A DNA stretch of 64,000 nucleotides, taken from the IMG/VR virus record IMGVR_UViG_3300021475_000005; one strand, 5' to 3'. Source of the stretch: a virus (lineage: Duplodnaviria > Heunggongvirae > Uroviricota > Caudoviricetes). The notes beneath the pieces are model-generated. The model saw nothing but the letters and a program-made list of their open reading frames with translations, was not told the origin of the DNA and did no database searches. Of this stretch, positions 8,227-23,545 are shown piece after piece. Every line of letters starts with the position of its first letter. Positions within the stretch are counted from its first letter, which is position 1. The position numbers and the translations under genes are program-made.

Positions 8227-8304
8227 TGGACTCGCTACCGAGGCTCGAACTCGGATCGTGAAGACTTCGGAGGTCAACGTTCTATCCATTTGAACTATAG
8301 CGAG
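8227..8304 (-). tRNA. tRNA-Arg(CCG)
   Basis: Cloverleaf; loop CUCCGAA; encoded CCA. Confidence 0.85.
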
Positions 8305-8308
8305 AAGG

Positions 8309-8383
8309 TGGCAGTCCCAGACGGATTCGAACCGCCGACCATTCGTTTAGAAGACGAAGGCTCTTCCGCTGAGCTATGGGACT
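8309..8383 (-). tRNA. tRNA-Arg(UCU)
   Basis: Canonical cloverleaf; loop CUUCUAA; CCA. Confidence 0.95.
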
Positions 8384-8395
8384 ATGCACATTAAG

Positions 8396-8484
8396 TGGCA
8401 CTGACGGCGAGATTCGAACTCGCAATGTGGTTTCCCACTCCAGATTCGTAGTCTGGTGCCTTGATCCAGTTAGACTACGTCAGT
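8396..8484 (-). tRNA. tRNA-Arg(ACG) with long variable arm
   Basis: Loop CUACGAA; extra arm GUGG-GAAA-CCAC; CCA. Confidence 0.9.
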
Positions 8485-8521
8485 GTATTATGTATACGGA
8501 TAATCCGTACACTGATTAAAA

Positions 8522-8598
8522 TGGCTCCTGTTGCAAGGCTCGAACTTGCCGCGATCTGATTAACAGTCAGATGTCCACACCCGGTGCACTTAACAGGA
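8522..8598 (-). tRNA. tRNA-Asn(GUU)
   Basis: Loop CUGUUAA; CCA. Confidence 0.9.
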
Positions 8599-8629
8599 AT
8601 AGTGAGATGACATATCTCACAGATTGATT

Positions 8630-8704
8630 TGGATCAAGGAGTAGGATTCGAACCCACGTTGCCGACGTTCAATGCGTCGTGTCCTACCGCTAGACGATCC
8701 TTGA
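8630..8704 (-). tRNA. tRNA-Gln(UUG), A33 variant
   Basis: Loop CAUUGAA; U1-A72; CCA. Confidence 0.85.
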
Positions 8705-8709
8705 AAATT

Positions 8710-8785
8710 TGGCTCACCCTCTTCGATTCGAACGAAGAGCCTCCAGATTCAGAGTCTGTTGCGCTACCAGTTGCGCCAAGGGTGA
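8710..8785 (-). tRNA. tRNA-Gln(CUG)
   Basis: Loop CUCUGAA; CCA. Confidence 0.92.
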
Positions 8786-8786
8786 A

Positions 8787-8861
8787 TGGTAGTTCCTCGG
8801 AGAATCGAACTCCGCTAAATCTCCGTGTAAAGGAGGCGACCAGCCACTGGCCCAAGGAACT
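8787..8861 (-). tRNA. tRNA-Val(UAC)
   Basis: Loop UUUACAC; CCA. Confidence 0.88.
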
Positions 8862-8895
8862 AAACTTTTTTACTCCTTTCGAGTAAACGTTGATT

Positions 8896-8970
8896 TGGTT
8901 GTCCCTGATGGAGTTGAACCATCTACCTAACGGTTATCAGCCGTTTGCTCTACCGATGAGCTAAGAGACA
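8896..8970 (-). tRNA. tRNA-Ile(GAU)
   Basis: Loop CUGAUAA; CCA. Confidence 0.93.
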
Positions 8971-8975
8971 TCATT

Positions 8976-9050
8976 TGGTTGGCCTACCGAGAATCGAACT
9001 CGGGCATAAACGCTCATCAGGCGCTTGCTGTACCACTTAGCTATAGGCCG
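8976..9050 (-). tRNA. tRNA-Ile(GAU), G37 variant
   Basis: Loop CUGAUGA; CCA. Confidence 0.85.
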
Positions 9051-9055
9051 AAATT

Positions 9056-9130
9056 TGGTATCTCTTACTGGAATCGAACCAGTTCATCACGGCATGTCAT
9101 ACCGGTGCTCTCCCACTGAGCTAAAGAGAT
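9056..9130 (-). tRNA. tRNA-Val(GAC)
   Basis: Loop AUGACAU; CCA. Confidence 0.88.
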
Positions 9131-9131
9131 A

Positions 9132-9206
9132 TGGTCGATCTGGATGGTCTCGCACCACCGACACGAAGATTTTCAGTCTCCTGCTCTACTCCTGAGCTAC
9201 AGATCG
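9132..9206 (-). tRNA. tRNA-Phe(GAA)
   Basis: Loop CUGAAAA; CCA. Confidence 0.9.
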
Positions 9207-9299
9207 ATATTCGTTACTTCTCATCTCCATAATTCGCCGTTTCTGGCGAGTTAACGTCTGTTTCGTTTGTAACTCGTCGTCTTTGACGAGTTCTGCTTT

Positions 9300-9385
9300 T
9301 GGTGGGAGTGGAAGGAATTGCACCTACTCACCCGTGGGGACTGATTTTACAGACCAGCGCCGCTCTCTAACTCGACCGCACTCCC
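9300..9385 (-). tRNA. tRNA-Tyr(GUA)
   Basis: Loop CUGUAAA; variable arm; CCA. Confidence 0.9.
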
Positions 9386-9398
9386 ATGGTCCAAATGC

Positions 9399-9434
9399 AA
9401 AAAGGCCCGCTCGGTGTTTACCGGGCGGGCCTTT
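9399..9434 (-). terminator. attenuator terminator (3:4 hairpin) in front of tRNA operon 1
   Basis: AAAGGCCCGCCCGGU-AAAC-ACCGAGCGGGCCUUUUU, ending 13 nt before tRNA-Tyr. Confidence 0.9.
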
Positions 9435-9457
9435 CGGAACCTTGAGAGCGACTGGGT

Positions 9458-9547
9458 TTACCAGATATCCTGCTCACGCGCCGAAGACCCGCCCGGAATA
9501 TACCGGACGAAGTTGACTTGCTGCACGCGGTTGAATCTCTTGCTCAT
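9458..9547 (-). CDS. leader peptide 1, MSKRFNRVQQVNFVRYIPGGSSAREQDIW (29 aa)
   Basis: ATG 6 nt after the -10 element (leaderless); codons 4-17 all read by downstream tRNAs; codons 18-23 form the antiterminator strand. Confidence 0.85.
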   Translation of the reverse strand: MSKRFNRVQQVNFVRYIPGGSSAREQDIW

Positions 9548-9553
9548 GATGTT

Positions 9554-9582
9554 TGTGTACCTGATTCGATTTTGAATGTCAA
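9554..9582 (-). promoter_or_regulatory. sigma70-type promoter of tRNA operon 1
   Basis: TTGACA-17 nt-TACACA; the same -35/-10 pair precedes the TROVE gene. Confidence 0.7.
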
Positions 9583-9848
9583 GGATACCCAATATGGGGT
9601 GGTGAGTCAGTTTGACTGACTTGACATTCCCAAAACTTGTCGGGAGGGCTAGGAAAGGCCAGAGGCTTTTCATCTGGGCTGTAGCAATCCCAGAACAGCG
9701 CTACTCCTGCGCTCCGGCCTATCATAGCCCTCCCGACCTCGGCTTGCGCCGGACGCGGATGCCACGCGATCTGGGGAGGCTAGGGGATTCGACAGGTGCG
9801 GTCAAGGATCGCGACTTTCGCGTATCTCAGGTACGGGAAAGTCGTAAA

Positions 9849-9938
9849 TGGCGGAGAGTTGGCGAACCCGAGTCCCATACCCGTAAAGGTACACAAGGTT
9901 TAGCAAACCTGTCCCATCACCTGATGAGTTAACTCTCC
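9849..9938 (-). tRNA. tRNA-Ser(GCU), 8/4 fold
   Basis: 8-bp acceptor GGAGAGUU/AACUCUCC; 6-bp D stem; loop UUGCUAA; variable arm; GCCA. Confidence 0.8.
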
Positions 9939-9943
9939 TAATC

Positions 9944-10033
9944 TGGCGGAGCGCACTGAAGTTGCGTCAGAGGCCTTTGCAGGCTCGCGATGCTTTCCAA
10001 GCAGGCCGGGCGCGCTCGTCCCGTTTACGCTCC
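9944..10033 (-). tRNA. tRNA-Ser(GGA), 8/4 fold
   Basis: 8-bp acceptor; 4-bp T stem CUGA/UCAG; loop UUGGAAA. Confidence 0.8.
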
Positions 10034-10103
10034 AATTTTGCGCGAGATGCCACGACGCATCCCTTTCAACCATTCCGGCACGTTGGCCTGCGCTGGTCTT
10101 GAC

Positions 10104-10193
10104 TGGAGGAAGGCGGGTGCTGCTGCCGCCCAAGCCGGTTAGGGCTCCATCCGTTTTCAAAACGGAGTCTAACACTGGTTAGATTCACCTTCC
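10104..10193 (-). tRNA. tRNA-Ser(UGA), 8/4 fold
   Basis: 8-bp acceptor; D stem UCUAAC/GUUAGA; loop UUUGAAA. Confidence 0.8.
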
Positions 10194-10198
10194 GTAAT

Positions 10199-10289
10199 TG
10201 GCAGAGAGCGACGGGGATGCTCCGCAAACTTCTCTCGAAGTTCGATCCGCTTTCGAAACGGTCGCCGTACCTCGACGGCTTCACTCTCT
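10199..10289 (-). tRNA. tRNA-Ser(CGA), 8/4 fold
   Basis: 8-bp acceptor; T stem GCGG/CCGU; loop UUCGAAA. Confidence 0.8.
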
Positions 10290-10296
10290 GTAAAAA

Positions 10297-10372
10297 TGGT
10301 GGACCTTGCCGGACTTGAACCGACCACCCGCTGCTTGCAAAGCAGCCGCTCTCCCAGATGAGCTAAAGGCCC
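10297..10372 (-). tRNA. tRNA-Ala(UGC)
   Basis: G3:U70; loop UUUGCAA; CCA. Confidence 0.93.
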
Positions 10373-10378
10373 GTAGCT

Positions 10379-10450
10379 TGGTGGAGTAAATGGGAGTCGC
10401 GCCCATCGCAATCGGTTTGCAAGACCAATCTCCGCCCTCGCGGTTACCCC
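10379..10450 (-). tRNA. tRNA-Ala(UGC), compact D arm
   Basis: G3:U70; loop CUUGCAA; CCA. Confidence 0.8.
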
Positions 10451-10454
10451 GAAC

Positions 10455-10530
10455 TGGAACTGCGTGTCCGATTTGCACGGACCTCCTCCGCCTTCACAGG
10501 GCGGCGACTCGCTTGCTAGTCCTACGCAGC
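10455..10530 (-). tRNA. tRNA-His(GUG)
   Basis: Loop CUGUGAA; CCA. Confidence 0.85.
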
Positions 10531-10538
10531 ATTTAATT

Positions 10539-10622
10539 TGGTCGCTCTACCAGAACTTGCATCTGGAATCCCGAAGGACAACGTTCTCAACGTTGCGCGT
10601 CTACTAGTTTCGCCATAGAGCG
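10539..10622 (-). tRNA. tRNA-Leu(GAG)
   Basis: Loop UUGAGAA; variable arm; ACCA. Confidence 0.9.
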
Positions 10623-10631
10623 TTATTTTAG

Positions 10632-10714
10632 TGGTGCCTCAACCCAGACTCGAACTGGGACGCTTTCGCACTGGGATTTGAAGCCAGCGTGTCTACCATT
10701 TCCACCATGGAGGC
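10632..10714 (-). tRNA. tRNA-Leu(CAA)
   Basis: Loop UUCAAAU; variable arm; ACCA. Confidence 0.9.
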
Positions 10715-10726
10715 ATATTCGTTATT

Positions 10727-10809
10727 TGGTGCCCAACGTCGGGGTCGAACCGACACCTCAATGAGAACGGGATTTAAAGCCGTCGCGTCTGCCATTCCGC
10801 CAGATGGGC
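10727..10809 (-). tRNA. tRNA-Leu(UAA)
   Basis: Loop UUUAAAU; variable arm; ACCA. Confidence 0.9.
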
Positions 10810-10850
10810 ATTATAAACTTGTGATCGAGTAGTACGATTCACTTGTAAGT

Positions 10851-10934
10851 TGGTAGCCCTAGAGGGACTTGCACCCCCACGTCTTTCGACATTGGTTCCT
10901 AAGACCAACGCGGCTTCTATTACGCCATAGGGCC
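10851..10934 (-). tRNA. tRNA-Leu(UAG)
   Basis: Loop CUUAGGA; variable arm; ACCA. Confidence 0.9.
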
Positions 10935-10939
10935 AAACT

Positions 10940-11027
10940 TGGAGGACTCGGAGAGAATTGCACTCTCGGTGGCAGTTACGCTAGTGGATTAAGAATCCAC
11001 GCCCATCGCTTCTCGGGTCACGAGTCC
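10940..11027 (-). tRNA. tRNA-Lys(CUU) with long variable region
   Basis: Loop UUCUUAA; ~16-nt variable region; UCCA. Confidence 0.85.
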
Positions 11028-11045
11028 AAATTATTCAGTATACTG

Positions 11046-11130
11046 AGGATCGGGTGAGATTTGCACTCACGATGGCATTTCTGCGTGGGTTTAAAAGACC
11101 CGTGACTTCGACTACTCTGTCCACCGATCC
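11046..11130 (-). tRNA. tRNA-Lys(UUU) with long variable arm, CCA not encoded
   Basis: Loop CUUUUAA; arm GCA-GAAA-UGC. Confidence 0.8.
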
Positions 11131-11145
11131 ATCTCAGTATAAAAT

Positions 11146-11221
11146 TGGTTCCGCTTATCTGACTTGCACAGATCATCTCTCGTTTACGAGACGAGCGCAT
11201 CGCTACCAATGCTTAAGCGGA
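11146..11221 (-). tRNA. tRNA-Thr(CGU)
   Basis: Loop CUCGUAA; CCA. Confidence 0.88.
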
Positions 11222-11226
11222 TCAAC

Positions 11227-11301
11227 TGGTGCCTCTTGAACGACCTGCCCGTTCCTCTCACCCCTACCAAAGGTGCTCATCGCTTTCTATGATTAAAAGG
11301 C
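11227..11301 (-). tRNA. tRNA-Thr(GGU), divergent T loop
   Basis: Loop UUGGUAG; T arm GAACG-GGCAGGU-CGUUC; CCA. Confidence 0.75.
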
Positions 11302-11302
11302 G

Positions 11303-11378
11303 TGGTGCCGATAGACAGGATCGAACTGCCTCCCTGACTGATTACAAAACAGTTGCGCTCCACTAGCGCCATATCGGC
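11303..11378 (-). tRNA. tRNA-Thr(UGU)
   Basis: Loop UUUGUAA; CCA. Confidence 0.9.
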
Positions 11379-11467
11379 AAAAAACAATTGCATGATTCGG
11401 GTAGTCTCGCCTTCTTCGCGTCCCGATAGTTTCAGCCATCACCGGCTTACGGAGATCATGCACAAAA

Positions 11468-11555
11468 TGGTCAGAGTGGTGTGATTCGAACACACGATGC
11501 CTTTCGGCTCCTGCTCCCAAAGCAGGCGGAATGAGCCAGCCTATCCGACACTCTG
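11468..11555 (-). tRNA. tRNA-Pro(UGG) with long variable arm
   Basis: Loop UUUGGGA; arm GCC-GAAA-GGC; C1-G72; ACCA. Confidence 0.88.
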
Positions 11556-11602
11556 ATAATTCTAATATCATCATAGCGAATCTCCGCTTACGATGATTGA
11601 AT

Positions 11603-11678
11603 TGGTCTGCCTATCAGGATTTGAACCTGAATCACCAGCTTCCGAGGCCGGGGCTCTACCAAGTTAAGCTATAGACAG
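11603..11678 (-). tRNA. tRNA-Pro(CGG)
   Basis: Loop CUCGGAA; C1-G72; ACCA. Confidence 0.9.
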
Positions 11679-11767
11679 TCGTTCTTCGTCTCCTGTTGGA
11701 GCCGGACCTGTTTCTGGAGCGGGGATCAGAAGGTTTGGTCGCGACTCGTGTTAGCCGCGAGAGGGAC

Positions 11768-11881
11768 TTAGTCCCGTAAGCGGCTTGAGAGTGGTGCGGT
11801 CGCTGGCGTTGTCAGCACGAGCGAATGCAAACTGGCGGAGGCCAGTTTGGGGCTCGACTTGAGTGACAACGTTGCGAACAT
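11768..11881 (-). CDS. leader peptide 2, MFATLSLKSSPKLASASLHSLVLTTPATAPLSSRLRD (37 aa)
   Basis: AAAGG RBS; 30 of residues 3-33 are P/T/K/L/H/A/S, the amino acids of the downstream 18 tRNAs. Confidence 0.85.
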   Translation of the reverse strand: MFATLSLKSSPKLASASLHSLVLTTPATAPLSSRLRD

Positions 11882-11921
11882 TTTCAAACCTTTAAGTGGC
11901 GCGAGTCGCGCCGGAAGTCTT

Positions 11922-11950
11922 TGTGTCTCATATCCAGACTCGTATGTCAA
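11922..11950 (-). promoter_or_regulatory. promoter of tRNA operon 2
   Basis: TTGACA-17 nt-GACACA with GAGTC in the spacer. Confidence 0.65.
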
Positions 11951-12099
11951 CAAAGAAATTTCAAAATCCACTTTCCGGTTTCGCCGGGTTGCCGCGATTA
12001 ACAAAAGGACGCCCGCTTTTGCAGGCGTCGTGTCGCTTTCTTTATGGCAATGCATCCGAATTCCCGGATGAGCGGCTCATATGAGTAAAGGAGATCAAA

Positions 12100-12396
12100 A
12101 TGGACGATGATTGGGACAATGAAGAATGGGAACGCTGGATCGCGCTCACCGATGCGGAACAGGAGCAGGAACTCCGCGTGGCTGAGGCGGAATATATGGA
12201 ATGGTATAGATCGTTGACGCCAAAGCAGCGCTACCATTATGAAGTCCGAGGACTTCTTCGACTCATCGTCAAGGAACGAAAAGGCTTAAAGCTCTTTCCC
12301 GAAATGCGAGATTTGATGGTTCGAAGAGCCCAGAAATTACTTTGGGCGCATCGGCATCATCGTCAAACCGGCATCTATCCTTCGTTCGACGACTAG
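12100..12396 (+). CDS. hypothetical protein
   Basis: AAGGAG RBS; 98 aa. Confidence 0.7.
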   Translation: MDDDWDNEEWERWIALTDAEQEQELRVAEAEYMEWYRSLTPKQRYHYEVRGLLRLIVKERKGLKLFPEMRDLMVRRAQKLLWAHRHHRQTGIYPSFDD

Positions 12397-12713
12397 CGGC
12401 AAAATACAGCATCAGTCGTCACGCCGACCTCGCCATCAATTTCTTCCAGCGCCGTGTCCGGAATTTCCGGCATGGGAACTGTGCCTCGAAGTGCGTGATA
12501 ACTGTCAGCATGAAAAAACAACTGCCCATCCGTTATATTGTAATGGCAGTATCCACGTTTCAAGTGCTGACCGAATGACGGACTGTACGTTGGTTTATCA
12601 TCAGTGCCTGATCGTGCCCAGCGCCCTGTCGGGATAACATGCAGTTCTTCACAAGCTGGACACCAGTGATATAAATTGCCGCCAAACTCGGCGGTCCAAG
12701 GAGCAAGTTTCAT
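12393..12713 (-). CDS. small Cys/His metal-binding protein
   Basis: CPAC..H and PTYSPSF...CHY motifs common in phage/bacterial DUF proteins. Confidence 0.7.
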   Translation of the reverse strand: MKLAPWTAEFGGNLYHWCPACEELHVIPTGRWARSGTDDKPTYSPSFGQHLKRGYCHYNITDGQLFFHADSYHALRGTVPMPEIPDTALEEIDGEVGVTTDAVFCR

Positions 12714-12730
12714 TTTATTCCCACACAATG

Positions 12731-12756
12731 AAAAGGCCCGGATCGCTCCGGGCCTT
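12731..12756 (-). terminator. intrinsic terminator after the small basic protein cluster
   Basis: AAGGCCCGGA-GCGA-UCCGGGCCUUUU. Confidence 0.7.
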
Positions 12757-13045
12757 GTTCGGCTACTCGCCGCCAGCCTGCTTTCACAGACACAAAGATC
12801 GCCAGATTTTCATCTGTCGCAGGACGATCTTATTTACGCAGGTGCCAGTTTAGCCATCGCCTTACCAGCACGTTTCAATAATCCAGTCATTTGAGCGTTC
12901 GTATCTGGATTACGAGAAATTGTTCCATCCATGTGTCCCTGATGTAACTTCATCGCGGCTTGAAGGGCTGCTGTTCCAGCTTGATGTTCTTGCTGGAGAT
13001 CAGGCCCGATAGAAGCCTGAAGATCAGAGATACCTTGGTCCAATT

Positions 13046-13168
13046 TTATTTGCCCTTCTTCTTGGGCATCGGCATTGCCTTCTTTCCGCCAGCCGGTTTC
13101 TTGCCTGCACCTTTCTTCTTACCAAAGGGAGGTGCTGCACCGGGGAATGCAGGTTTCTTCGAGGCCAT
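13046..13168 (-). CDS. 40-aa Lys/Pro/Gly-rich basic peptide (not in ORF track)
   Basis: MASKKPAFPGAAPPFGKKKGAGKKPAGGKKAMPMPKKKGK; AAAGGA RBS; tiles between the 12834..13043 and 13199..13420 ORFs. Confidence 0.65.
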   Translation of the reverse strand: MASKKPAFPGAAPPFGKKKGAGKKPAGGKKAMPMPKKKGK

Positions 13169-13420
13169 TCGGGATTTCCTTTTGTTGGTTGAGGGTAGTT
13201 ACATGCCCGGCGTGTCTGCGTCCGGGTCCATGTCGGGATCGCACATCGCCTGATTGGGATGTGCATTATTATTCGGGTCCATCAATTCTCCGGTAGGCCA
13301 TGCGCCACGAGGCGCAGAAGTTGGCGGACCAGCCTGATTGTTGGTGATGACGCCAACAAGCGCCTTCGAATTCGGGTGCTTCGTCGAAGCAGCCTTATTC
13401 TTTCGCATATTGTACTTCAT

Positions 13421-13633
13421 TTATTTTGGAGCCTTTCCATCGCGCTTCTTGTGGAAGCCTTCCAGAGTTTCGGCGAGACGCGCTTCTTTGCCGATCTTAC
13501 CCGGTTCCGCAGCCGCCTTTTTGAGTTCGTCCTGCGGAATTTTCTGGCCTTGTGGAATTCCCAATGCACGATGCAGCGCGCCTTTGTCGCCGCCAATCGC
13601 TTTCTGGATAAAATGTTTTGCTTTCTTTGCCAT
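13421..13633 (-). CDS. small basic phage protein
   Basis: GAGG RBS; KGALHRALGIPQGQKIP...ARLAETL. Confidence 0.75.
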   Translation of the reverse strand: MAKKAKHFIQKAIGGDKGALHRALGIPQGQKIPQDELKKAAAEPGKIGKEARLAETLEGFHKKRDGKAPK

Positions 13634-13769
13634 GACGGCGCTACCTCAATAGGGACCTGAGAAGCGCGGATTGTCTCGCTTATGACACAACGAGTCAAGA
13701 ATTCCGACTCATTGCCGGAGTCAAGTTACAGAGATGAAATCTAATATATGAAATTTATAATATATGAGA

Positions 13770-13845
13770 TGGCGCACCTAACGAGATTCGAACTCGCAGC
13801 GACTTGATCGACAATCAAGCTTCATTCCCAGATGAACCTAGATGC
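13770..13845 (-). tRNA. tRNA-Asp(GUC), G37 variant
   Basis: Loop UUGUCGA; GCCA. Confidence 0.85.
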
Positions 13846-13866
13846 ATTATCTCACATATAATAAAT

Positions 13867-13943
13867 TGGTCATGCCAACGAGATTCGAACTCGTGCCACA
13901 AGGATTGAAAGTCCCGTATCCTAGACCGCTAGACCATGGCATG
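13867..13943 (-). tRNA. tRNA-Glu(UUC)
   Basis: Loop CUUUCAA; CCA. Confidence 0.92.
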
Positions 13944-13945
13944 AT

Positions 13946-14025
13946 TGGTCGGGTCAACGGGGAACGATCCCGCATAGCAAGCTTGAGAGGCAAGCTGTCC
14001 TAGTCCTGATTTAGACGATGACCCG
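13946..14025 (-). tRNA. tRNA-Glu(CUC), irregular anticodon stem
   Basis: Loop CUCUCAA; mismatches in the anticodon stem; CCA. Confidence 0.72.
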
Positions 14026-14067
14026 TAGAGAGGAGTTTCGGACGGGTCGAAGATTTACGTCGCGCGC

Positions 14068-14175
14068 TTAAGCGGCGACGCGCATATCTCGGCCCGTCGA
14101 ACGTTCAAGTTCGCGGGCAACGGTGCCGGAGAGGCACACGTGCATGAGTGCGCGGATGTGATTCGAGATAACCAT
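14068..14175 (-). CDS. candidate leader peptide 3 (35 aa) before the Glu/Glu/Asp tRNA operon
   Basis: ATG 5 nt after TTGACA-17-GATGAA; stop codon at the apex of a long hairpin. Confidence 0.45.
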   Translation of the reverse strand: MVISNHIRALMHVCLSGTVARELERSTGRDMRVAA

Positions 14176-14347
14176 GCGCTTTCATCTCATTTTCAGACGG
14201 CCTTGTCAAGAATGCCTCGATAATATAGACGCCATATAGGAAAGCGGCTGAAATCCGGCACTACCGGTCATAAAAAGCGACAGATGCCATATTGACAGCC
14301 CCATTCCACTCCATTACACCGCATCCCATAAAGAAGGGTCTCACTAC

Positions 14348-14524
14348 ATGGCGAAAAAACCGCCGAAGAAGAAAGAGTCCAGACTAGCTATGGCGTTGAT
14401 GCAGAAGGATCGGGCGCTGATCGATAAAGCCGCTGCCCTTCTCGGCCTTCCACCCTCTGTCTGGGGACGTGCAATCATTCTCAAAGAGGCGGCAAAAGTC
14501 GTCGAAGCGGCAGGCGCAAAATGA
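14348..14524 (+). CDS. small ribbon-helix-helix-like regulator (58 aa, not in ORF track)
   Basis: ESRLAMALMQKDRALIDKAAALLGLPPSVWGRAIILKEA pattern; stop overlaps the next ATG. Confidence 0.6.
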   Translation: MAKKPPKKKESRLAMALMQKDRALIDKAAALLGLPPSVWGRAIILKEAAKVVEAAGAK

Positions 14525-15207
14525 CCAAACACCCGAGCATGTTGGAAAAACTGGGACTCGTCGAAAGCGACGAGCCGGAACTGCCACATGATCTTCCTCA
14601 TGCGCCGCCACCCGCGCAGCCCTTGATGCAACCAAATACAATGGTGCCTCCTCCGGCTGCGGTCACTGGCGCACAACCTCCTCCGCAATTTACTTCAAGC
14701 GCTCCTTTATATACCGCGCCTGCGGTCCTGACCGAAGCCGACCAGAAGCAACTGCAAGCAATGACGACGCAAGTCTACGCGATGCCTTCTACATACGTTA
14801 TCTTCCAACGTGTGCGTGAGAGCTTGGGTAATATCTCGGATGTCAATATGATATTCAAGGTGTTGTCGGCGGCAAACCCGGGCGTCACAACCGATAAGGT
14901 TGTTGCAGATATCGAAACTCATCTTGGGATCGTCGGTACGCTGCGGGCTCGCTTCGATCAGCAGATGAAGGACGCACGTGCTGCAAAGATTGATGGTCCA
15001 ACGCAAGGGATTGCCGATCTCACTGCGGCGAATGCGGCTGCCGTTCAGCAGATCGCCGACCGCACAGCCAAGATCGCGCAGATGCAGACAGATATTGCGA
15101 ATGCCGACCGGGCTCTCCAAGATGCGGCGGTACATTTCAAACTGGTTGAAGATCAGTTGAACGCGCCTCTGCTCCAAACCAAACAGCTTCTCTCCACCGC
15201 TCACTAA
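14521..15207 (+). CDS. coiled-coil protein of the ABC/OmpA operon
   Basis: Pro-rich linker followed by a helical domain. Confidence 0.75.
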   Translation: MTKHPSMLEKLGLVESDEPELPHDLPHAPPPAQPLMQPNTMVPPPAAVTGAQPPPQFTSSAPLYTAPAVLTEADQKQLQAMTTQVYAMPSTYVIFQRVRESLGNISDVNMIFKVLSAANPGVTTDKVVADIETHLGIVGTLRARFDQQMKDARAAKIDGPTQGIADLTAANAAAVQQIADRTAKIAQMQTDIANADRALQDAAVHFKLVEDQLNAPLLQTKQLLSTAH

Positions 15208-15216
15208 GGAATTGAT

Positions 15217-16239
15217 ATGAGCAACGATCTGGTCTCGACGCCGTGGACTCCACCGGAGTCCAAAGTCATGCAGTCAATCGTCAAATGGGGAGGTTTGGCT
15301 GCGCTCGTAATTGGAGGTTTCATTGCCTTCAATACGTTTGCGCCAACGGTCGTGACTGCTGTCACGTTGCTCAATCTTATCTTGCAAGACGCCACGCACA
15401 TGATCATTTCCGGAGTCGGGTTGATCATCGTGGCTTGGCTGGCGAGAGAAACAATCAGCCCGGCTGGCAGTATCAATCGCCTTCTCCGGATGCCGTATTG
15501 GATCATGGTCAACGGTTTGACCAGATTCTTTTTGAACATCGATCCACTTTCGCCGATCACGGAACGGTTGCAAGCCGTCCGCGCCGATCAGGCGCAGTTT
15601 CAAAAGCAGTTCGAAACACTCGATGGCCTGATTTCAAGTCTGCACGATAAGGCGGCGAACTATCGCGATCAGAGTGCGAAAGCCCAACGGCTTGGAATCG
15701 CTGCAACCAAGCAGGGTCAAAAAGCTGCGGCTGAAGTCGCCATTTCAAATTTCGGTCGATTCAAAGATGCTGCTGATTCTTATGAGGCGACGGCACAACG
15801 GCTTGATCCAATCCGCAAGACTTTTCAGAACATTTCGCAGGCGTGCGATATCACGGCCCAGAAACTTGAAACTGAGCGCACTCTCCTTGCCGACAAATGG
15901 CAAGTACAGAAAGCAGTGGGTTCTGCTACGAAGGCCGCGAGTCGTATTCTCGGTCGTTCTAAGACGCAGGTCTGGGATATGGCACAACAGGCGGAGACGC
16001 TCATCGATACCAAATATTCCGAAGAGCTTGGGCATCTCGATCACCTGAAAAATTACGCGGAACCGTTCTTGCAATCGATTGACGTGGAAAATGCGTCATA
16101 CAGCGAAGAAATGTTCCAGCAAGTTCAGACAGGGGGAGCCAAACTACTCGAATCAACGGCTGCGACACCACTTCCTCTGGCCCCTCCCGTTGAGGCAAGT
16201 ACATCTTCGGATATGCTTGCCGGATTCATCCGTTCGTAG
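15217..16239 (+). CDS. 2-TM membrane protein with long PspA-like coiled coil
   Basis: Two N-terminal hydrophobic segments, then ~220 aa of heptads. Confidence 0.7.
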   Translation: MSNDLVSTPWTPPESKVMQSIVKWGGLAALVIGGFIAFNTFAPTVVTAVTLLNLILQDATHMIISGVGLIIVAWLARETISPAGSINRLLRMPYWIMVNGLTRFFLNIDPLSPITERLQAVRADQAQFQKQFETLDGLISSLHDKAANYRDQSAKAQRLGIAATKQGQKAAAEVAISNFGRFKDAADSYEATAQRLDPIRKTFQNISQACDITAQKLETERTLLADKWQVQKAVGSATKAASRILGRSKTQVWDMAQQAETLIDTKYSEELGHLDHLKNYAEPFLQSIDVENASYSEEMFQQVQTGGAKLLESTAATPLPLAPPVEASTSSDMLAGFIRS

Positions 16240-16258
16240 ATTTAATCAGGAGACGACA

Positions 16259-18025
16259 ATGGCATTGAAAATTACACGCGCAGGCTTTCTTGTCATCGCC
16301 GTCGTGGGCGTCGCGGCCCTCGGCGCGCTCGGCAAGTTCGCCATCAACAAAGGCATTCTCGGCAAACCGACAGACGTTGTGTCGTCGGTTCCGACAGTCA
16401 CGACAATTCAACACTTTACTGTGTCGGATTCTGCGGCGACTTATTCCCTTCCCGTATCTGCCAAACCAACTTCCATGCCGACATGTCCGGTCATGGAAGA
16501 ACTGGCATGGAATGCCATGGGCGCACTCAACGTCGCCAATGGCGGTGCAGAGACCGACCGCGATTCCATGGTCGCCAAATATACGAATGGCGGCTGCATC
16601 TCGCTCAAGCGTCAAGACGATTATGGGCAGATGGAAACCAATCTTGCAGCTTTCGTCAGTTCCGATGGAGCGAAAGGCGACGCGTTTATCGCTATTATGG
16701 GCGACGCCTATCCGTATGTCGCTGCCGCGCTTCAGAAATTGATTCCGGGACAGTTTGAAGCCATCGGCGCTATCGGCTTCTCGGATGGCGAAGACAAGTG
16801 CATGCTTCCGGGCGAGGTTGCCAAGGACCCGCAAAAGGCTCGCGGAACGCTCGTCGCTGCTGTGGCACGTGACGGCGACTGGAACATTTGCGTGAAGTGG
16901 GCATCGGACAATGGAATTCCGATCAATGTCGATCAGAAGACTTATGACCCGACCGCAATGAACTTCATGGATGTGGATGCTTTCACGACCGCCGACGACA
17001 AACTCATTGCAGGCGCTTGCGAAGATCGTACGGTTGTGTCGAACGGTCTGACGCATGGTACGAAGAAAGTCTGCGTCAACGGCGTAGCGACATGGACACC
17101 GGGCGACGTGGATGTCATCAAGAAATATCCGGGCAGCATCGTCGGCGTTGCATCGACACATGACTATGCAGGGCAGATGCCAGCCCTCATCATCGGTGCG
17201 AAAACATGGATGGCGGCGCACCACGATTACGTGGTCGGCTTGCTACGGGCTTCCGACCGGGGCGCGATGGCGATCCGGACCAGTGAAGGTGGCTTGATGC
17301 AAATGGGCGCAGCAAACGCTCAAATCTTCAAGGAGCAAACGCCAGACTATTGGGCGCACTATTTCAAAGGCGAAACTGTCTCACACGCTGGCGATATGGT
17401 GAACCTCGGCGGTTCGAAAGTGATCACGCTTCAAGAAGAACGCGATTACTTCGGCATGCGCGCTGGCACCGAAAACATTTACGCATCGGTCTATCGCGTG
17501 TTCGCAAACTATGATGGGACGTTCTACCCGACCCTGTATCCGAAATCTGGATCGGATTCTATTCCGTCATACGAAGAGGTCGTCGATACCAGCTATCTCG
17601 CCGATGCTCTTGCCGGAATTCCCGAAACTCAAGGCGCAGTCACTGCTGCACTGGCAGTGTCGGCTCCTATCACGCAGACGGTCTCCAAGAAGTCTTGGCA
17701 CATCGAGTTTGACTCCGGTCAGGCAACGATCAAGCCGGATTCGATGAATCAGCTTTATCAGATCGAAGATACGGCGGCGATGACCAATCTCCGTATTCGC
17801 TTGGATGGCTATACGGACAGCACGGGGTCGGCGACGCGTAACATTCCGCTCTCGGAAGCGCGGGCTCAGGCCGTGGCTAACTGGTTGACGACCAAAGCTC
17901 CGAATAACTTCCCGGCTACGCGTATGGAAGCCCGTGGGCACGGTTCTGACGATCCGCTGTGCTCTGATAACACGGCAGATTGCCGCGCTCAGAACCGTCG
18001 CGTTGAAATCAGCCTAGGATCATAA
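16259..18025 (+). CDS. ABC substrate-binding-like protein fused to a C-terminal OmpA-like peptidoglycan-binding domain
   Basis: AGGAG RBS; N-terminal anchor; WTPGD; IEFDSG...GYTDSTG...LSEARAQAV...NRRVEI. Confidence 0.9.
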   Translation: MALKITRAGFLVIAVVGVAALGALGKFAINKGILGKPTDVVSSVPTVTTIQHFTVSDSAATYSLPVSAKPTSMPTCPVMEELAWNAMGALNVANGGAETDRDSMVAKYTNGGCISLKRQDDYGQMETNLAAFVSSDGAKGDAFIAIMGDAYPYVAAALQKLIPGQFEAIGAIGFSDGEDKCMLPGEVAKDPQKARGTLVAAVARDGDWNICVKWASDNGIPINVDQKTYDPTAMNFMDVDAFTTADDKLIAGACEDRTVVSNGLTHGTKKVCVNGVATWTPGDVDVIKKYPGSIVGVASTHDYAGQMPALIIGAKTWMAAHHDYVVGLLRASDRGAMAIRTSEGGLMQMGAANAQIFKEQTPDYWAHYFKGETVSHAGDMVNLGGSKVITLQEERDYFGMRAGTENIYASVYRVFANYDGTFYPTLYPKSGSDSIPSYEEVVDTSYLADALAGIPETQGAVTAALAVSAPITQTVSKKSWHIEFDSGQATIKPDSMNQLYQIEDTAAMTNLRIRLDGYTDSTGSATRNIPLSEARAQAVANWLTTKAPNNFPATRMEARGHGSDDPLCSDNTADCRAQNRRVEISLGS

Positions 18026-18532
18026 TCTCTTTCTCACTGTGTCTTAAAAAGGAGTTGTCCATGACTGCATTCAAACAGAAACTCGTTACTGCCGTCGTAG
18101 GTGCGATGGCAGGGCGCAAATGCGATTGCGAAGGCTGCAATTGCCACTATGGGGAGGCGGACGCCGAAAAGCTCGTTTCCGCCATCGCGCCAATCGTTGC
18201 CGACGAATGCGCAAAGGAAGTTCACGACGATCTTCTGGCTCGCCTTCGCCTGCACGCCTGACAATACGGCGAGGAAAAGCATAAATGAGTACGTGCCGCG
18301 AAATGCCTATCGTAACCAAGTATGCTTTCCTCGTCGAACTAGGCGAAGATGAGTACATGCCTTATGGATGGTTCCATGAGCCCAGTAACAATCCTCTCGA
18401 CACGGGAGGTCATTGGGAATCTCTTTCGGTCGTCTCCTATCCCCTAAAGAAAGCCAGTGAGATTGCAGAGAGGCATCATCTTGATACGGTCGAGGATTAT
18501 GAGTTATGGGCTGCAATAAATGAGATAGAGGA

Positions 18533-18760
18533 GTGACATTGCTGACGGCATTTGGCTTGCTCGCCGTCACTTTAATGATTCTGTTTCATAGCCTTGAGTC
18601 TCGTAGTCATTGGTTCATGCTGGCGTTCGCTGGAAGTTGTCTTTTGGGATCGATCTACGGTTTTGCGCAAGGAGCATGGCCCTTTGGAATTGCAGAATTC
18701 GTCTGGACGGGAACCGCTCTCGTGAAGTGGAATACGATCAGGAAGATGATGCCGAAATGA
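18533..18760 (+). CDS. small 3-TM membrane protein
   Basis: GAGGA RBS; YGFAQGAWPFGIAEFVW. Confidence 0.7.
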   Translation: MTLLTAFGLLAVTLMILFHSLESRSHWFMLAFAGSCLLGSIYGFAQGAWPFGIAEFVWTGTALVKWNTIRKMMPK

Positions 18761-18983
18761 GACGGAACGAATGCACTGAAGACCTGAAAAAGCCTTGGGC
18801 AAATCGTATGCGCAGGGATACTCAAGTCGCGGGAGCAATCGAATTAGCCTTCCTGCGAGGTGAACAATCCGGGCGCGAGAAAACGATTGCGCGTGTTCTC
18901 AAAATCATCGCTAAGTGGTTTTCCAGTGATTCTGATATCAAAGGCTGCCTCCGGGAAGTCCGTGCATTGAAGGACGACCATTC

Positions 18984-19772
18984 ATGAACAATCTGCTTTC
19001 CCTCATCACGCCGAATGCCTGTATCAATAAGAGTACGCGGTCGGCGATCATCTTCGGCTGGATTGTTGTCACGCTGTTGATCTGGCAATTCGTTGATATC
19101 CGTTTCCTTCCCAAGCCAACTGAAATTCTCAATGCGTTCGAGACGCTCCGGCAGAATGGTACCTTCCTTGAATTCGGCACCAGCATCTGGACGATGATGG
19201 AAGCAATCTTCTGGACTGTCGCGATTTCACTTTCGCTCGCGTATTTGTCCGTCTTGCCCATCCTCGAACCATTCGTAAAGTTCATCACCGGGCTTCGCTA
19301 TCTCGGCCTCGTCGGCCTCATGCTGGCCTTCACGCTGATCGCGCCGGACGGGCATGCACTCAAGGTCATGGTGCTGACGTTCGGTATGACAGTCTTTTAT
19401 CTCCGCGATATGCTCAGTATTGTTCAAGCAATCCCGCAGGAAGAATATGACCATGCCGAGACCCTCGGGATGAGCCAGATTCGCATCATCTATGAGGTGA
19501 TCGTCTTGGGAACCCTCGACGAGGCGCTCGAATCTCTTCGCGTCAATGCTGCGATGGGTTGGATGATGCTGACAATGGTCGAGGGCATCGTTCGCTCAGA
19601 GGGCGGCATAGGCACCGTGCTGATCAATATGAACCGGCATATGGATTTGCCCGCAACCGGCGCGATCCTGATTAGCCTTTTCTGTGTTGGAATTATTCAG
19701 GACTTCCTCATTGGGATGTTCCGAAACTATATCGCTTGCCCGTATGCCAATCTCGGGAAAGGACGCGGCTGA
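18984..19772 (+). CDS. ABC transporter permease (NitT/TauT type)
   Basis: LPKP motif; 6 TM; EAA-like loop YDHAETLGMS. Confidence 0.9.
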   Translation: MNNLLSLITPNACINKSTRSAIIFGWIVVTLLIWQFVDIRFLPKPTEILNAFETLRQNGTFLEFGTSIWTMMEAIFWTVAISLSLAYLSVLPILEPFVKFITGLRYLGLVGLMLAFTLIAPDGHALKVMVLTFGMTVFYLRDMLSIVQAIPQEEYDHAETLGMSQIRIIYEVIVLGTLDEALESLRVNAAMGWMMLTMVEGIVRSEGGIGTVLINMNRHMDLPATGAILISLFCVGIIQDFLIGMFRNYIACPYANLGKGRG

Positions 19773-20599
19773 TGTCTTCTGATTACACTTACGAGCGCGC
19801 CGAAGTTCTGCTTAAGGTCACTGGCCTGTGCGTGAACTACAGCTTGCCGATCCTGCGCGATGTCAATATCGAAATTCGGGACATCAAACGTCCGGGGATC
19901 ACGCAAGGCCAGAAAGTGGCGCTCTTGGCACCGAGCGGGACAGGTAAGACGCAACTCTTCAAACGCCTCTCAGGACTTCTTCCGCCCAGTTCAGGTACCG
20001 TTCTGATTGGCATTGACCAGACGCCAGTCAAAGCTGGAATGGTTGGAATAGTGCCTCAGAATTACCTCCTGTTCGGACACCGAACGGTCGAGAGCAGTCT
20101 GCTTTTGGCTGCCGGGATGCGCGAAAAAAACAGTACGACGGCAAAGGCCAAGGTTCTGGAGCTTCTGGAGCAGTTCGGACTTGCCGATAAGCGTCACGTC
20201 TATCCGCAGGAGCTTTCAGGGGGCCAGAGACAGCGAATCTCGATTGCCGAGCAGTTGCTCTCTAGCAATCACTTTCTGCTCATGGACGAGCCGTTCTCGG
20301 GCTTGGACATCATCGCGAAGAAAACGGTCTGCGATGTGATCGATGCGGTATCGTCGCGAGACGAACTGAATACGACCATCTTCTCGACCCACGACATCGA
20401 GAGCGCCGTCATGATCGCAGATACGATCCTGATCCTCGGACGCGATAAGGATGTTCATGGAATGCCGGTACCGGGTGCGCGTATCCAGCAGACCATCGAT
20501 CTAATCGAGCGCAACTTGGCGTGGCATACGGACGTGGAGCATATGCCGAACTTCGTTTCTACCGTTCAGGAAATCAAGAGCATCTTTACGACACTATGA
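19772..20599 (+). CDS. ABC transporter ATPase
   Basis: APSGTGKT, LSGGQRQR, LLMDEPFSGLD, STHD. Confidence 0.95.
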   Translation: MSSDYTYERAEVLLKVTGLCVNYSLPILRDVNIEIRDIKRPGITQGQKVALLAPSGTGKTQLFKRLSGLLPPSSGTVLIGIDQTPVKAGMVGIVPQNYLLFGHRTVESSLLLAAGMREKNSTTAKAKVLELLEQFGLADKRHVYPQELSGGQRQRISIAEQLLSSNHFLLMDEPFSGLDIIAKKTVCDVIDAVSSRDELNTTIFSTHDIESAVMIADTILILGRDKDVHGMPVPGARIQQTIDLIERNLAWHTDVEHMPNFVSTVQEIKSIFTTL

Positions 20600-20814
20600 C
20601 CGCGTTTGATATCTTCATGGGGTGGGCCTACACGATGATGGGAAGTTCTCTCATCTGCGTAAGTGCACTTTGGTTCTCGTCGGTGATCAAACTGAATCTT
20701 AAAGTCGCGGACACCGGCATCTTTGGCGTCATCATGCCGATCTTGATGGCGACAGGTCTGTTCCTTGTCTGGAACGGAATTCCTATTGTTCTTGGAATCA
20801 ACTAGGAGAAAGCT

Positions 20815-21531
20815 ATGCACCTGAATATGATGCAAGTCGTAACACCAGAAGAACAGATGAAAACGCTCATTGCGAACTCCTACCGCGACTTCCATGCGCC
20901 GGGCGTCGATTACGTTTGCCTGCATAGGCATCCGCATCTGACCATAAAGGCGTATTTCTTCGATGAAGGAAGTGGACGCGCGCTTGGGAAGAACCGGCAG
21001 ATCGTCAGTCCACATGACCATCGCTACGATTTTGCTACTCTCGTCCTACGTGGGAAAATAGGAAATGCCATATGGGTCGAAACGGCTGAGACGGGGATGT
21101 ATGGCGACGGCGTTACAAAATTTTTGGAATACAGTTTCCGTACGCCTCTAAATGGCGGCGCAGGTTTCAAATATGAGCGCGAAAGCTGGCTCAGGTTAAG
21201 TGGTACTCGCGTTCACCAAGTCGGTTCGCGCCATACGATGTGCTATGACCAAATCCATACACTCATCGATGTTGCGCCCGAAACCGTGCTGCTCATCTGG
21301 CAATATCCCGATGTGAAAGGGCCATTCGCATCGAGCCGTACATTCGTCGATCCCTACGGTGCCAGTATGCTGAAACATCCAACGGGTGCTCCATCACTGG
21401 AAGGCCTATACAACAAGTTTACAGAGGCCCAGATAACCCAAAGGCTGAAGCAACTTGAGTCGCTTCAGCCCCGGATTCTTCAAAACTATGCGCTGCATAG
21501 CTTGGCAGGTTTGGACTACATCGCCGATTAG
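20815..21531 (+). CDS. His-rich cupin-like hypothetical protein
   Basis: PHDHRYDF...G and QIHTL motifs. Confidence 0.55.
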   Translation: MHLNMMQVVTPEEQMKTLIANSYRDFHAPGVDYVCLHRHPHLTIKAYFFDEGSGRALGKNRQIVSPHDHRYDFATLVLRGKIGNAIWVETAETGMYGDGVTKFLEYSFRTPLNGGAGFKYERESWLRLSGTRVHQVGSRHTMCYDQIHTLIDVAPETVLLIWQYPDVKGPFASSRTFVDPYGASMLKHPTGAPSLEGLYNKFTEAQITQRLKQLESLQPRILQNYALHSLAGLDYIAD

Positions 21532-21995
21532 GCGTCGATGTACTCGATCATGACGGTAGCTGCGCCGGTCGATCCGTCGCCGCCTGAAATTGAGATGCTG
21601 AGATCGCCGACAGGCTGCACGTAGACTGGCACATTAAAGTCGCCGGGCGCTGTGACGGCTGCATGCGTTCCATCCGTGATGGACGTTGCAGCCAGTGCGC
21701 CGCTGCCGCCAGAATGGTCGCCTACGGTGATCTTACCGCCGCTTGGGTAAGCCGCAGTGACGTGCTCGCGGATGCCAATAATCTTCGAGCCTGACGGAAG
21801 CGCTGGGATCGCGACAGGGCCTGCTACGCCAATGGCGACGTGCTGGCACTTGATGGCGAGAGCCACGGCTGCGGTAGCTGCCTTTCCTGCTGCATTAACT
21901 TCATTGAGTGCGCCCACCACATTGTTGCGATTGACGGTTGTCAATTGCGACATATCGCTGTGGTCGCGTTCCGGATCGTATACGCCGCTTGCCAT
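21528..21995 (-). CDS. probable virion structural protein
   Basis: LTTVNRNNVVGALNEV fibre-type motif; beta-rich C-terminus; late-type promoter upstream. Confidence 0.55.
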   Translation of the reverse strand: MASGVYDPERDHSDMSQLTTVNRNNVVGALNEVNAAGKAATAAVALAIKCQHVAIGVAGPVAIPALPSGSKIIGIREHVTAAYPSGGKITVGDHSGGSGALAATSITDGTHAAVTAPGDFNVPVYVQPVGDLSISISGGDGSTGAATVMIEYIDA

Positions 21996-22069
21996 GGAAA
22001 TTTCCTTAAGAGATTATGAACTGCAAGATGACATTTAAGACAGATAGAGTCAAGAATGATGACTCATGA

Positions 22070-22714
22070 TTAGGTCCAAATAACAGGAACGTTCTGACTC
22101 GTTTGGAGGGTATTAAAGGTCAGCACAAGATAGTCTTGCGTGTATCCGGATGCATTCGTATGCGAGACAGTTGTAGCCGTGTAATCGGTAAAGGCGTTCC
22201 AGTCTAACGTATTGGGCATTACATCAGGCGTTGCAATTTGCGGGCGACGAGGCAGTCCAATGCTTGCCGGATATGCGATGCATGGATAGCCTCCGGCTGC
22301 GCAGGCATACTGAACTGTCATCTCCAACTTGCGGTCGATAAACTCGCTTGATGTTAAAGCTAAAATATCCGCGCTCGACGCCGGAGGTGCTTGAACGACA
22401 CCCCAGTAAACCAATGGAAGGAATTCAAGCTGGGTCCGCTGACGTGCCTGCGTATCTTCATCGGCGCAAATCAGTTCCCATGTCGTATCGTCGGTGAAAG
22501 GACCGATTTGGGTGACCTGTGTAATGGCGGGGTTGAGAGCAACACCGTTGAGTGAAAGCGAGACGGCAGCTTTGGAAAGTCCCCAGTTTAGGATAACGGA
22601 TGGGACAGTAGAACCGATCTCGGCAATCGGGGGATTTGGCGCGAAGATCGCGACGACCATTTCGACCGGAACAGAGAACTGTCCGTAGAAAACACTATAC
22701 GTGAAGTTGGTCAT
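22070..22714 (-). CDS. probable virion structural protein
   Basis: Beta-rich; VYWG, YPASIG and TNASGYTQDY motifs. Confidence 0.55.
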   Translation of the reverse strand: MTNFTYSVFYGQFSVPVEMVVAIFAPNPPIAEIGSTVPSVILNWGLSKAAVSLSLNGVALNPAITQVTQIGPFTDDTTWELICADEDTQARQRTQLEFLPLVYWGVVQAPPASSADILALTSSEFIDRKLEMTVQYACAAGGYPCIAYPASIGLPRRPQIATPDVMPNTLDWNAFTDYTATTVSHTNASGYTQDYLVLTFNTLQTSQNVPVIWT

Positions 22715-22772
22715 ATTACCTCATAAAGAAATGGCACCCGAAGGTGCCACTTCTCCGACTGAAGGGTCTGTC

Positions 22773-22848
22773 TGGTGCGGTGTGAGGATACTGATTCCCC
22801 GTCCTGCTGATTGGAAGTCAGCCGCTACCACCATTGAGCTAACACCGC
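22773..22848 (-). tRNA. tRNA-Gly(UCC), aberrant T loop
   Basis: GCG acceptor start; loop CUUCCAA; T loop lacks UUC. Confidence 0.8.
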
Positions 22849-23081
22849 GAATTTCCGTGGTTGGCGATATCCTCACCTTTCCTGCTGCACCACAAACAGC
22901 GCTTCCTCATGCAGGTTACTCGACCATGTCTCCTTTAGGGCTTTAGACATGCAATCGAAACCGAGAAACGTCAGAATATCATTCTATTTATTCCGGTCAG
23001 CCAAGGCCGTACTTATTTGAATGACAGAGCTAACGGCTATTACCAAAAGTCCTACGCACCCGACATGGATGAATATCGAAT

Positions 23082-23154
23082 TGGCGCTAGGGGATGGGAT
23101 TTCACCACCGATAGCAAATAAGCGCTTACATGCTATCTCTTACACGACCCAAGC
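23082..23154 (-). ncRNA. tRNA-like element lacking a D arm and a normal anticodon loop
   Basis: Acceptor GCUUGGG/CCCUAGC-GCCA and T arm present; middle is one long hairpin. Confidence 0.55.
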
Positions 23155-23159
23155 AAACT

Positions 23160-23222
23160 TGGAGCCAAGGGCTGGAATTACACCAGCCGGGACTTGCCCC
23201 CGTCTTTATACAAGACCTCGGC
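23160..23222 (-). ncRNA. 63-nt mini tRNA-like element
   Basis: Acceptor GCCGAGG/CCUUGGC-UCCA, T arm, shortened D and anticodon arms. Confidence 0.55.
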
Positions 23223-23228
23223 ATAAAC

Positions 23229-23304
23229 TGGAGCGGGTAAGGAGCCCAGTGATCTCCTCTATCTACGTTGGCAACGTAGCGCCTCGCCTCTAGGCTTTAC
23301 CCGC
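23229..23304 (-). tRNA. tRNA-Gly(GCC), 9-nt T loop
   Basis: Loop UUGCCAA; U73; T loop AUCACUGGG. Confidence 0.8.
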
Positions 23305-23388
23305 ATTTAATTCTAGTTTCGCAATACGGCGCTCACGACGATGAGCAAACCTGATATCACGACTGTGTGCTTTCTTGCTGCGCCGATT

Positions 23389-23462
23389 TGGAAGAGTGTA
23401 TGGGAGTCGAACCCATATCGCTTGTTTTGCAGACAAGAGCCTCACCGCCCGGCTCACACCCT
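23389..23462 (-). tRNA. tRNA-Cys(GCA)
   Basis: Loop CUGCAAA; U73; CCA. Confidence 0.9.
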
Positions 23463-23470
23463 AAAAATCG

Positions 23471-23545
23471 TGGCACCAGTTGAGCGATTCGAACGCCCGA
23501 CACGCGGTTTTGGAGGCCGCTGTTCTACCCCTGAACTAAACTGGT
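23471..23545 (-). tRNA. tRNA-Trp(CCA)
   Basis: Loop CUCCAAA; GCCA. Confidence 0.92.

Follow-up and report, generated by a model that had tools for sequence, protein, structure and literature searches.

The window analysed here is a 64,000-nucleotide (nt) stretch of the IMG/VR virus record IMGVR_UViG_3300021475_000005, a single contig of 156,272 bp from a partial phiCbK-like phage, and the subject of this report is its set of transfer RNA (tRNA) genes and the short leaders ahead of them. We identified about 37 tRNA genes, all on the minus strand and arranged in four blocks. ARAGORN called 27 of them and around ten more were recovered using relaxed ARAGORN settings, Rfam and manual folding. Block 1 (8227-9385) has the order Tyr, Phe, Val(GAC), two Ile, Val(TAC), two Gln, Asn and three Arg. 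Block 2 (~9849-11678) contains two Pro, two Thr and a degenerate third one, two Lys, four Leu, His, two Ala and four Ser. Block 3 (13770-14025) consists of Glu(CTC), Glu(TTC) and Asp, and block 4 (~22773-23545) of Trp, Cys, Gly(GCC), two degenerate tRNA-like folds and Gly(TCC). The second Gly gene of block 4 lies about 380 nt downstream, beyond the extent given to this block in the preliminary description of this DNA. Together the blocks cover 19 amino acids, none of which occurs in two blocks. The tRNA calls thus bear out the preliminary description, which reported four blocks with mutually exclusive amino-acid sets and no Met. No Met tRNA was found in the window or in the 156-kb contig; the relatives hold their Met tRNAs at a separate, distant locus, so its absence probably results from an incomplete contig. 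The genomes of the relatives measure 205-356 kb against 156,272 bp for our record, which is probably incomplete.

When single genes were shuffled, the exclusivity appeared in 0 of 2,000,000 trials. When adjacent isoacceptors were counted as one unit, the probability rose to P = 0.28, so the adjacency of isoacceptors accounts for most of the exclusivity. On its own the exclusivity is weak evidence of regulation, and with this block-level value we rejected it as proof. We also considered biosynthetic families and known nucleases as a logic behind the amino-acid sets, but none fits, and block membership shifts in relatives. To our knowledge, no such scheme explains why Leu is set apart from Ile and Val while Lys, Glu and Gln are distributed over three blocks. 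The preliminary description had read the partition as a set of demand-driven modules, each under its own leader, and had proposed a check for short open reading frames (ORFs) between promoter and first tRNA. Such ORFs were found for blocks 1-3, in the window as well as in up to 18 relatives. What speaks for the modules is the codon content of these leaders, the RNA structure and the co-variation in relatives, and not the exclusivity itself.

Block 1 has a sigma70-type promoter (9554-9582, minus strand) with a TTGACA -35 element, a 17-nt spacer and a degenerate -10 element. The predicted transcription start falls on the start codon of leader ORF A (9458-9547, minus strand, 29 codons), which would make the mRNA leaderless, and 19 phages place this codon 35-37 nt away from the -35 element. 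Transcripts of this leaderless kind are frequent in Caulobacter (PMC4117421). Codons 4-17 of leader A all (14/14) belong to the Tyr, Phe, Val, Ile, Gln, Asn and Arg set of the block, compared with a background of 0.33 (P = 2e-7). For all 11 tRNA species encoded in the block, leader A contains a codon that they can read; this covers the three Arg classes and both Gln codons. For leader A and for leader B of block 2, the remaining reading frames stay close to the background level.

Leader A is also the site of alternative RNA structures, all on the minus strand. Segment 1 (9503-9509) is the core of a 1:2 protector hairpin whose 5′ arm extends across the sensing codons; segment 2 (9481-9496), within the ORF, is the 5′ strand of an antiterminator, and segments 3 and 4 (9399-9437) form an intrinsic terminator hairpin of -26.7 kcal/mol with a U-tract, 14 nt ahead of tRNA-Tyr. 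The full leader is predicted to fold into the long 1:2 hairpin across the ORF, a stop-codon hairpin and the 3:4 terminator with its U-tract, and a shorter transcript folds as the 2:3 antiterminator. The z-scores in the window are -5.2 for the antiterminator and -5.9 for the terminator. This design is present in 19/19 phages examined, where codons of the block 1 set make up 259 of 275 positions upstream of segment 2 versus 80 of 265 downstream. In an alignment of 17 block 1 leaders we observed changes on both sides of 6/13 terminator, 3/7 protector and 4/12 antiterminator pairs, and the column of the stop codon is preserved. Modelling the ribosome as a mask during folding of block 1 leaders (a static model), we found that segment 2 becomes free chiefly when the ribosome stalls between 13 and 3 codons upstream of this segment, with a mean free fraction of 0.44-0.79; the value is 0.22 with the ribosome at the stop codon or with none. 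This stall window coincides with the matched codons. The mutually exclusive protector, antiterminator and terminator helices are thus placed so that stalling would favour read-through, and block 1 has every testable defining feature of a leader-peptide attenuator.

The surroundings of block 1 contain further structured elements. The block 1 promoter is separated from the last Ser tRNA by a strongly structured non-coding stretch with a tRNA-like 3′ end (9630-9850, minus strand), which matched nothing in Rfam; at the equivalent place, phiCbK also has a structured region with a promoter of its own. Past the last Arg tRNA (8030-8225, minus strand) we noticed a promoter of sigma70-like type, a long hairpin RNA that matches ar14 weakly (E = 0.57) and a terminator, and the layout in phiCbK is similar. 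Several relatives (L007, L015, L106 and L133) carry a Shine-Dalgarno-like sequence and an ATG between the block 1 terminator and tRNA-Tyr, and peptide deformylase genes lie directly upstream of block 1 in several relatives (L007:12348-12869, L008:12325-13002, L010:6346-6888 and L015:9318-9860).

Block 2 is preceded by a TTGACA-type -35 element (11945-11950, minus strand), followed by a short 5′ untranslated region, a Shine-Dalgarno-like sequence and leader ORF B (11768-11881, minus strand, 37 codons). This leader contains many synonymous codons and 31 of 36 codons come from the Pro, Thr, Lys, Leu, His, Ala and Ser set (background 0.43, P = 9e-8). After it, alternative hairpins are predicted (11698-11785, minus strand), namely a stop hairpin and a:b, b:c and c:d pairings with a C-rich loop. 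An intrinsic terminator with a U-tract is found at block 2 of phiCbK, Bajun, Kikimora, Bambus and L133. In lineages without the U-tract the block 2 spacers display a C-over-G skew of 0.21-0.30 versus 0.05-0.14 in those with it, which is compatible with Rho but only suggestive. Statistics for block 2 in relatives are not fully blind, as our composition-blind rule chose other frames or nothing for several leaders and these were added by hand; most of them coincide with annotated small coding sequences.

The -35 element of block 3 is also of TTGACA type (14204-14209, minus strand) and the leader starts 34 nt downstream, i.e. it is predicted to be leaderless. Leader ORF C (14068-14175, minus strand, 35 codons) contains Glu-x-Glu and Asp codons at positions conserved in relatives. 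A long hairpin over its stop codon (14040-14100, minus strand) ends just ahead of tRNA-Glu with a pyrimidine tail, and in the window this tail has no U-run. In most relatives leader C overlaps a hairpin of 16-25 bp with the stop codon in its loop and the end just before tRNA-Glu. The last Glu codon of most block 3 leaders is at or beside the first position from which a ribosome would fully block the hairpin base. Block 3 of most relatives fits a simple occlusion of the hairpin by the ribosome; in the window the fit is less clear.

Blocks 3 and 4 are separated by a cassette on the plus strand (14350-21530) encoding an OmpA-domain protein, an ATP-binding cassette (ABC) permease, an ABC ATPase and unknown proteins, which was not seen at the same position in annotated relatives. 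The promoter of block 4 (23586-23615, minus strand; 10/12 match to sigma70) is located about 40 nt ahead of tRNA-Trp. We found no leader ORF ahead of the block in the window, as in Colossus and PW, and judging from its sequence block 4 (Trp, Cys, Gly) is not leader-gated. A predicted terminator-like hairpin (22725-22756, minus strand) closes it. The interval between the two Gly tRNAs (22850-23228, minus strand) holds both degenerate tRNA-like folds together with a structured spacer. Related short palindromes, possibly operators or hairpins, occur at 23556-23572, 22047-22065 and 9603-9620, one of them within the 5′ leader of block 4.

Partition and block order are conserved across the subfamily, and the same leader layout is seen in as many as 18 relatives. 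One of them is phiCbK, whose record has annotated terminators ahead of the tRNA clusters at the same places. The exclusivity is not universal. Thr tRNAs stand in two blocks in CcrSC and CcrBL9, which breaks it, and some relatives have extra Arg or Cys tRNAs outside the blocks. Three other alphaproteobacterial phages, DSS3P8, Phosso and Cp1R7A-A1, have mixed, non-exclusive tRNA clusters, and codon-matched leaders were not found at the cluster heads checked.

Where a relative departs from this arrangement, its leaders tend to change with it. In Bertelyvirus, tRNA-Trp stands at the end of block 2 and leader B contains a Trp codon. For tRNA-Cys, L133 carries the gene in block 2 and a Cys codon in leader B, and G002 carries the gene in block 1 and a Cys codon in leader A. 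Block 2 of G002 is moreover split into three operons (Pro/Met/Thr/Lys, Leu and His/Ala/Ser), each with its own promoter and leader. The first of these leaders has 16/30 matching codons with two internal Met codons, the Leu leader shows four consecutive different Leu codons, and the His/Ala/Ser leader has 25/33 matching codons. The three lineages form separate branches in the PhoH+Ad1 tree. A Cys codon was seen in 0/35 sensing regions whose block has no tRNA-Cys. Codon gains match tRNA gains in 5/6 cases when tRNAs with a CAT anticodon are counted (P = 0.015 by genome-wide frequencies) and in 4/4 when they are excluded (product of per-event chances ~0.008). Such tRNAs occur in block 1 of both L133 and G001 and are ambiguous, since their identity may be Met or Ile2. 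The block 1 positions recorded for tRNAs of this anticodon are L133:6554-8010 and L166:10380-11409.

Considering the anatomy, the codon match, the alternative structures, the conservation and the co-variation, which come from sequence and computation, we regard it as likely that three of the four blocks are under ribosome-mediated transcription attenuation, which is also our proposed reason why each block keeps a defined set of amino acids. Host RNA polymerase would start at the sigma70-type promoter and a ribosome would translate the short leader made of the block's own codons; leader translation, the start sites and the direction of the switch are what we infer here, along with the trigger, which could be starvation, tRNA decay or anticodon nucleases. 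At block 1, a ribosome that reaches the stop codon or never loads would leave the 1:2 hairpin to lock segment 2, so that transcription ends at the 3:4 terminator without producing any tRNA. When charged tRNA is short, the ribosome would linger at codons ~6-16 and cover the 5′ arm, 2:3 would pair and the block would be transcribed. At block 3, a ribosome stalled at a Glu or Asp codon would cover the base of the terminator-like hairpin spanning the stop codon. Block 2 would use a longer cascade of hairpins, and its output may be Rho-dependent in the lineage of the window. The leader-controlled modules of the preliminary description are in this way retained for three blocks, with a case from sequence that is strong for block 1, good for block 2 and moderate for block 3, and abandoned for block 4.

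Under such attenuation the product would be the sensed molecule itself, as a block's tRNAs would be turned on whenever any of its codons is decoded slowly. The leaders sample many synonymous codons, which suggests a response to the loss of single tRNAs in addition to amino-acid starvation, and this would fit tRNA-cleaving defences as a trigger. Carried further, phiCbK-like phages may possess a closed-loop, isoacceptor-resolved tRNA homeostat in which the loss of any host tRNA induces the block with its replacement; we propose this tentatively and regard it as a little less probable than its opposite.

Several observations weigh against attenuation as we propose it. For block 1, the equilibrium model allows 2:3 to pair even with a ribosome at the stop codon, so the off state would depend on 1:2 folding before 2:3. 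At blocks 2 and 3 there is no U-tract terminator in the genome of the window or in its close relative G001, and because of this we do not class these two blocks of the window genome as canonical intrinsic attenuators. The static model reproduced the block 2 switch only in the phiCbK group; the effect was weak in the window (0.42 vs 0.27) and the switch was not reproduced in Bajun, Bambus, Kikimora, Bertelyviruses, Colossus, PW and G001. A first metric for this switch was distorted by long-range pairing, and its refined form did not work in most lineages. In leader C, Glu and Asp make up 3/34 codons, which is not an enrichment by count, and for the first of its two Glu codons no sensing is predicted in most relatives. 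A stray Trp codon and a stray Met codon were seen, one each, in leaders of blocks lacking the tRNA in question, and G001 carries a CAT-anticodon tRNA in block 1 with no internal Met or ATA codon in the leader. Finally, the relatives are not independent samples.

As an alternative, the leaders may be translated sensors that tune tRNA output to the overall rate of translation, or that act in the opposite direction, and do not induce a block when its own tRNAs are scarce, most plausibly at blocks 2 and 3. Such sensors would suit both the missing U-tracts of these two blocks in the window genome and the block 2 switch direction that is not reproduced in most relatives. The codon content is, however, specific to each block and the single-codon gains (Trp, Cys, Met) imply specificity, and the block 1 model yields read-through only at stalls on matched codons, so we find this explanation unlikely. 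Another one takes the partition as historical, i.e. as the result of tandem duplication and anticodon change in an inherited order, with constitutive or phage-timed expression serving codon supply. It agrees with the block-level null (P = 0.28) and with a block 4 that has no leader, and Gill et al. (2012, PMC3556154) interpreted the tRNAs of phiCbK as boosting the supply for codons common in the phage. Contigs from a soil RNA library match 10712-11902 and 22721-23691 exactly, the former spanning leader B to the tRNAs in line with such expression, with little cover of the plus-strand ABC cassette; their strand, ends and level are not visible and they may be DNA, so we did not use them as support. 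A purely historical partition leaves unexplained why a terminator should stand between promoter and first tRNA, why the leaders are codon-matched and why they change when tRNAs move, and we consider it very unlikely. That the small ORFs encode functional peptides, or that their composition is a by-product of RNA structure (C-rich arms giving Pro, Thr, Ala and Ser) with a protein antiterminator in control, is highly improbable: the amino acids of block 2 do mostly have C-rich codons and the leader sequences are conserved, but other frames of the same DNA show no enrichment, the conservation concerns codon identity and pairing, and the single-codon gains follow the tRNA moves.

Regarding the rest of the record, the major capsid protein shares 74-81 % identity with its counterparts in phiCbK-like phages of Caulobacter and Brevundimonas, and a portal, a terminase, a tail tube protein, PhoH and an RNA-binding protein of the Ro60 type known from these phages are also encoded. 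A Thr-like match at 39.6 kb was rejected as a tRNA because a YrlA-like RNA scores better, and the exclusivity stays intact. This Y RNA-like element (39544-39661, minus strand; Rfam E = 2.4e-5, under the gathering score), which tRNA finders mis-call as Thr, is located about 1.3 kb from the Ro60-type gene (36843-38216). The whole contig is present in full in a soil metagenome. Searches of IMG/VR with single proteins recovered few relatives.

The role of phage tRNAs has been debated for decades between codon compensation and the replacement of depleted or cleaved host tRNAs (PMC10264068), and a built-in sensor that turns on tRNA blocks only when their codons are read slowly would argue for demand-driven replacement. 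Leader-peptide attenuation would then extend from amino-acid and synthetase genes to tRNA genes, with single leaders sensing seven or eight amino acids. If the homeostat is true as well, attenuation would be an inducible counter-defence, including against anticodon nucleases, that audits nearly the whole genetic code. We found nothing relevant on attenuation of tRNA operons or phage tRNAs in the literature, of which subscription papers were mostly outside coverage, and neither leaders nor attenuation come up in the phiCbK paper (Gill et al. 2012, PMC3556154). The same cassettes are present in phiCbK, a cultured model phage whose terminators were annotated in 2012 without an attenuation reading, which makes the question directly testable.

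Leader-peptide attenuators are represented by trpL, hisL, thrL, the ilvGMEDA leader and pheM before pheST. Our leaders resemble those of amino-acid operons in the promoter, the short ORF carrying control codons, the 1:2, 2:3 and 3:4 helices that exclude one another and the intrinsic terminator. In the leuL attenuator, and in the multivalent ilv reference, stalling likewise leads to read-through (PMC3783181). Unlike these systems, the phage leaders regulate tRNAs, i.e. the sensed molecules themselves, and a single leader, in place of a run of one amino acid, has codons for up to 7-8 amino acids and for most isoacceptors, each as a rule represented once or twice. Leaders A and C also differ in being predicted as leaderless, and the setting is a phage. 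Antitermination in response to the state of tRNA is shared with the T-box, but a T-box binds uncharged tRNA directly and does not need a ribosome. Across 7800-24500 no T-box match was obtained from Rfam at E <= 1 and no other Rfam cis-element was found. A T-box operon of Clostridium reportedly includes tRNA-Asn genes. The Asn/Glu T-box has been described from Clostridium acetobutylicum (Saad 2012, as cited in PMC11404447). Among phage tRNAs that counter tRNA-cleaving defences, the tRNA-Tyr of T5 acts against retron Eco7 (PMC11555353) and a tRNA acts against PARIS (PMC11464382); these tRNAs likewise replace depleted host tRNAs, the rescue there needs a strong promoter, and no demand sensor is mentioned in the passages covered. 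A silent backup tRNA array that is turned on under translational stress is known from cyanobacteria, where TrcR represses the trn operon (PMC10272220). That array is one operon of 26 genes under a ribbon-helix-helix (RHH) protein repressor with no codon-specific modules, whereas the window has four separately promoted blocks.

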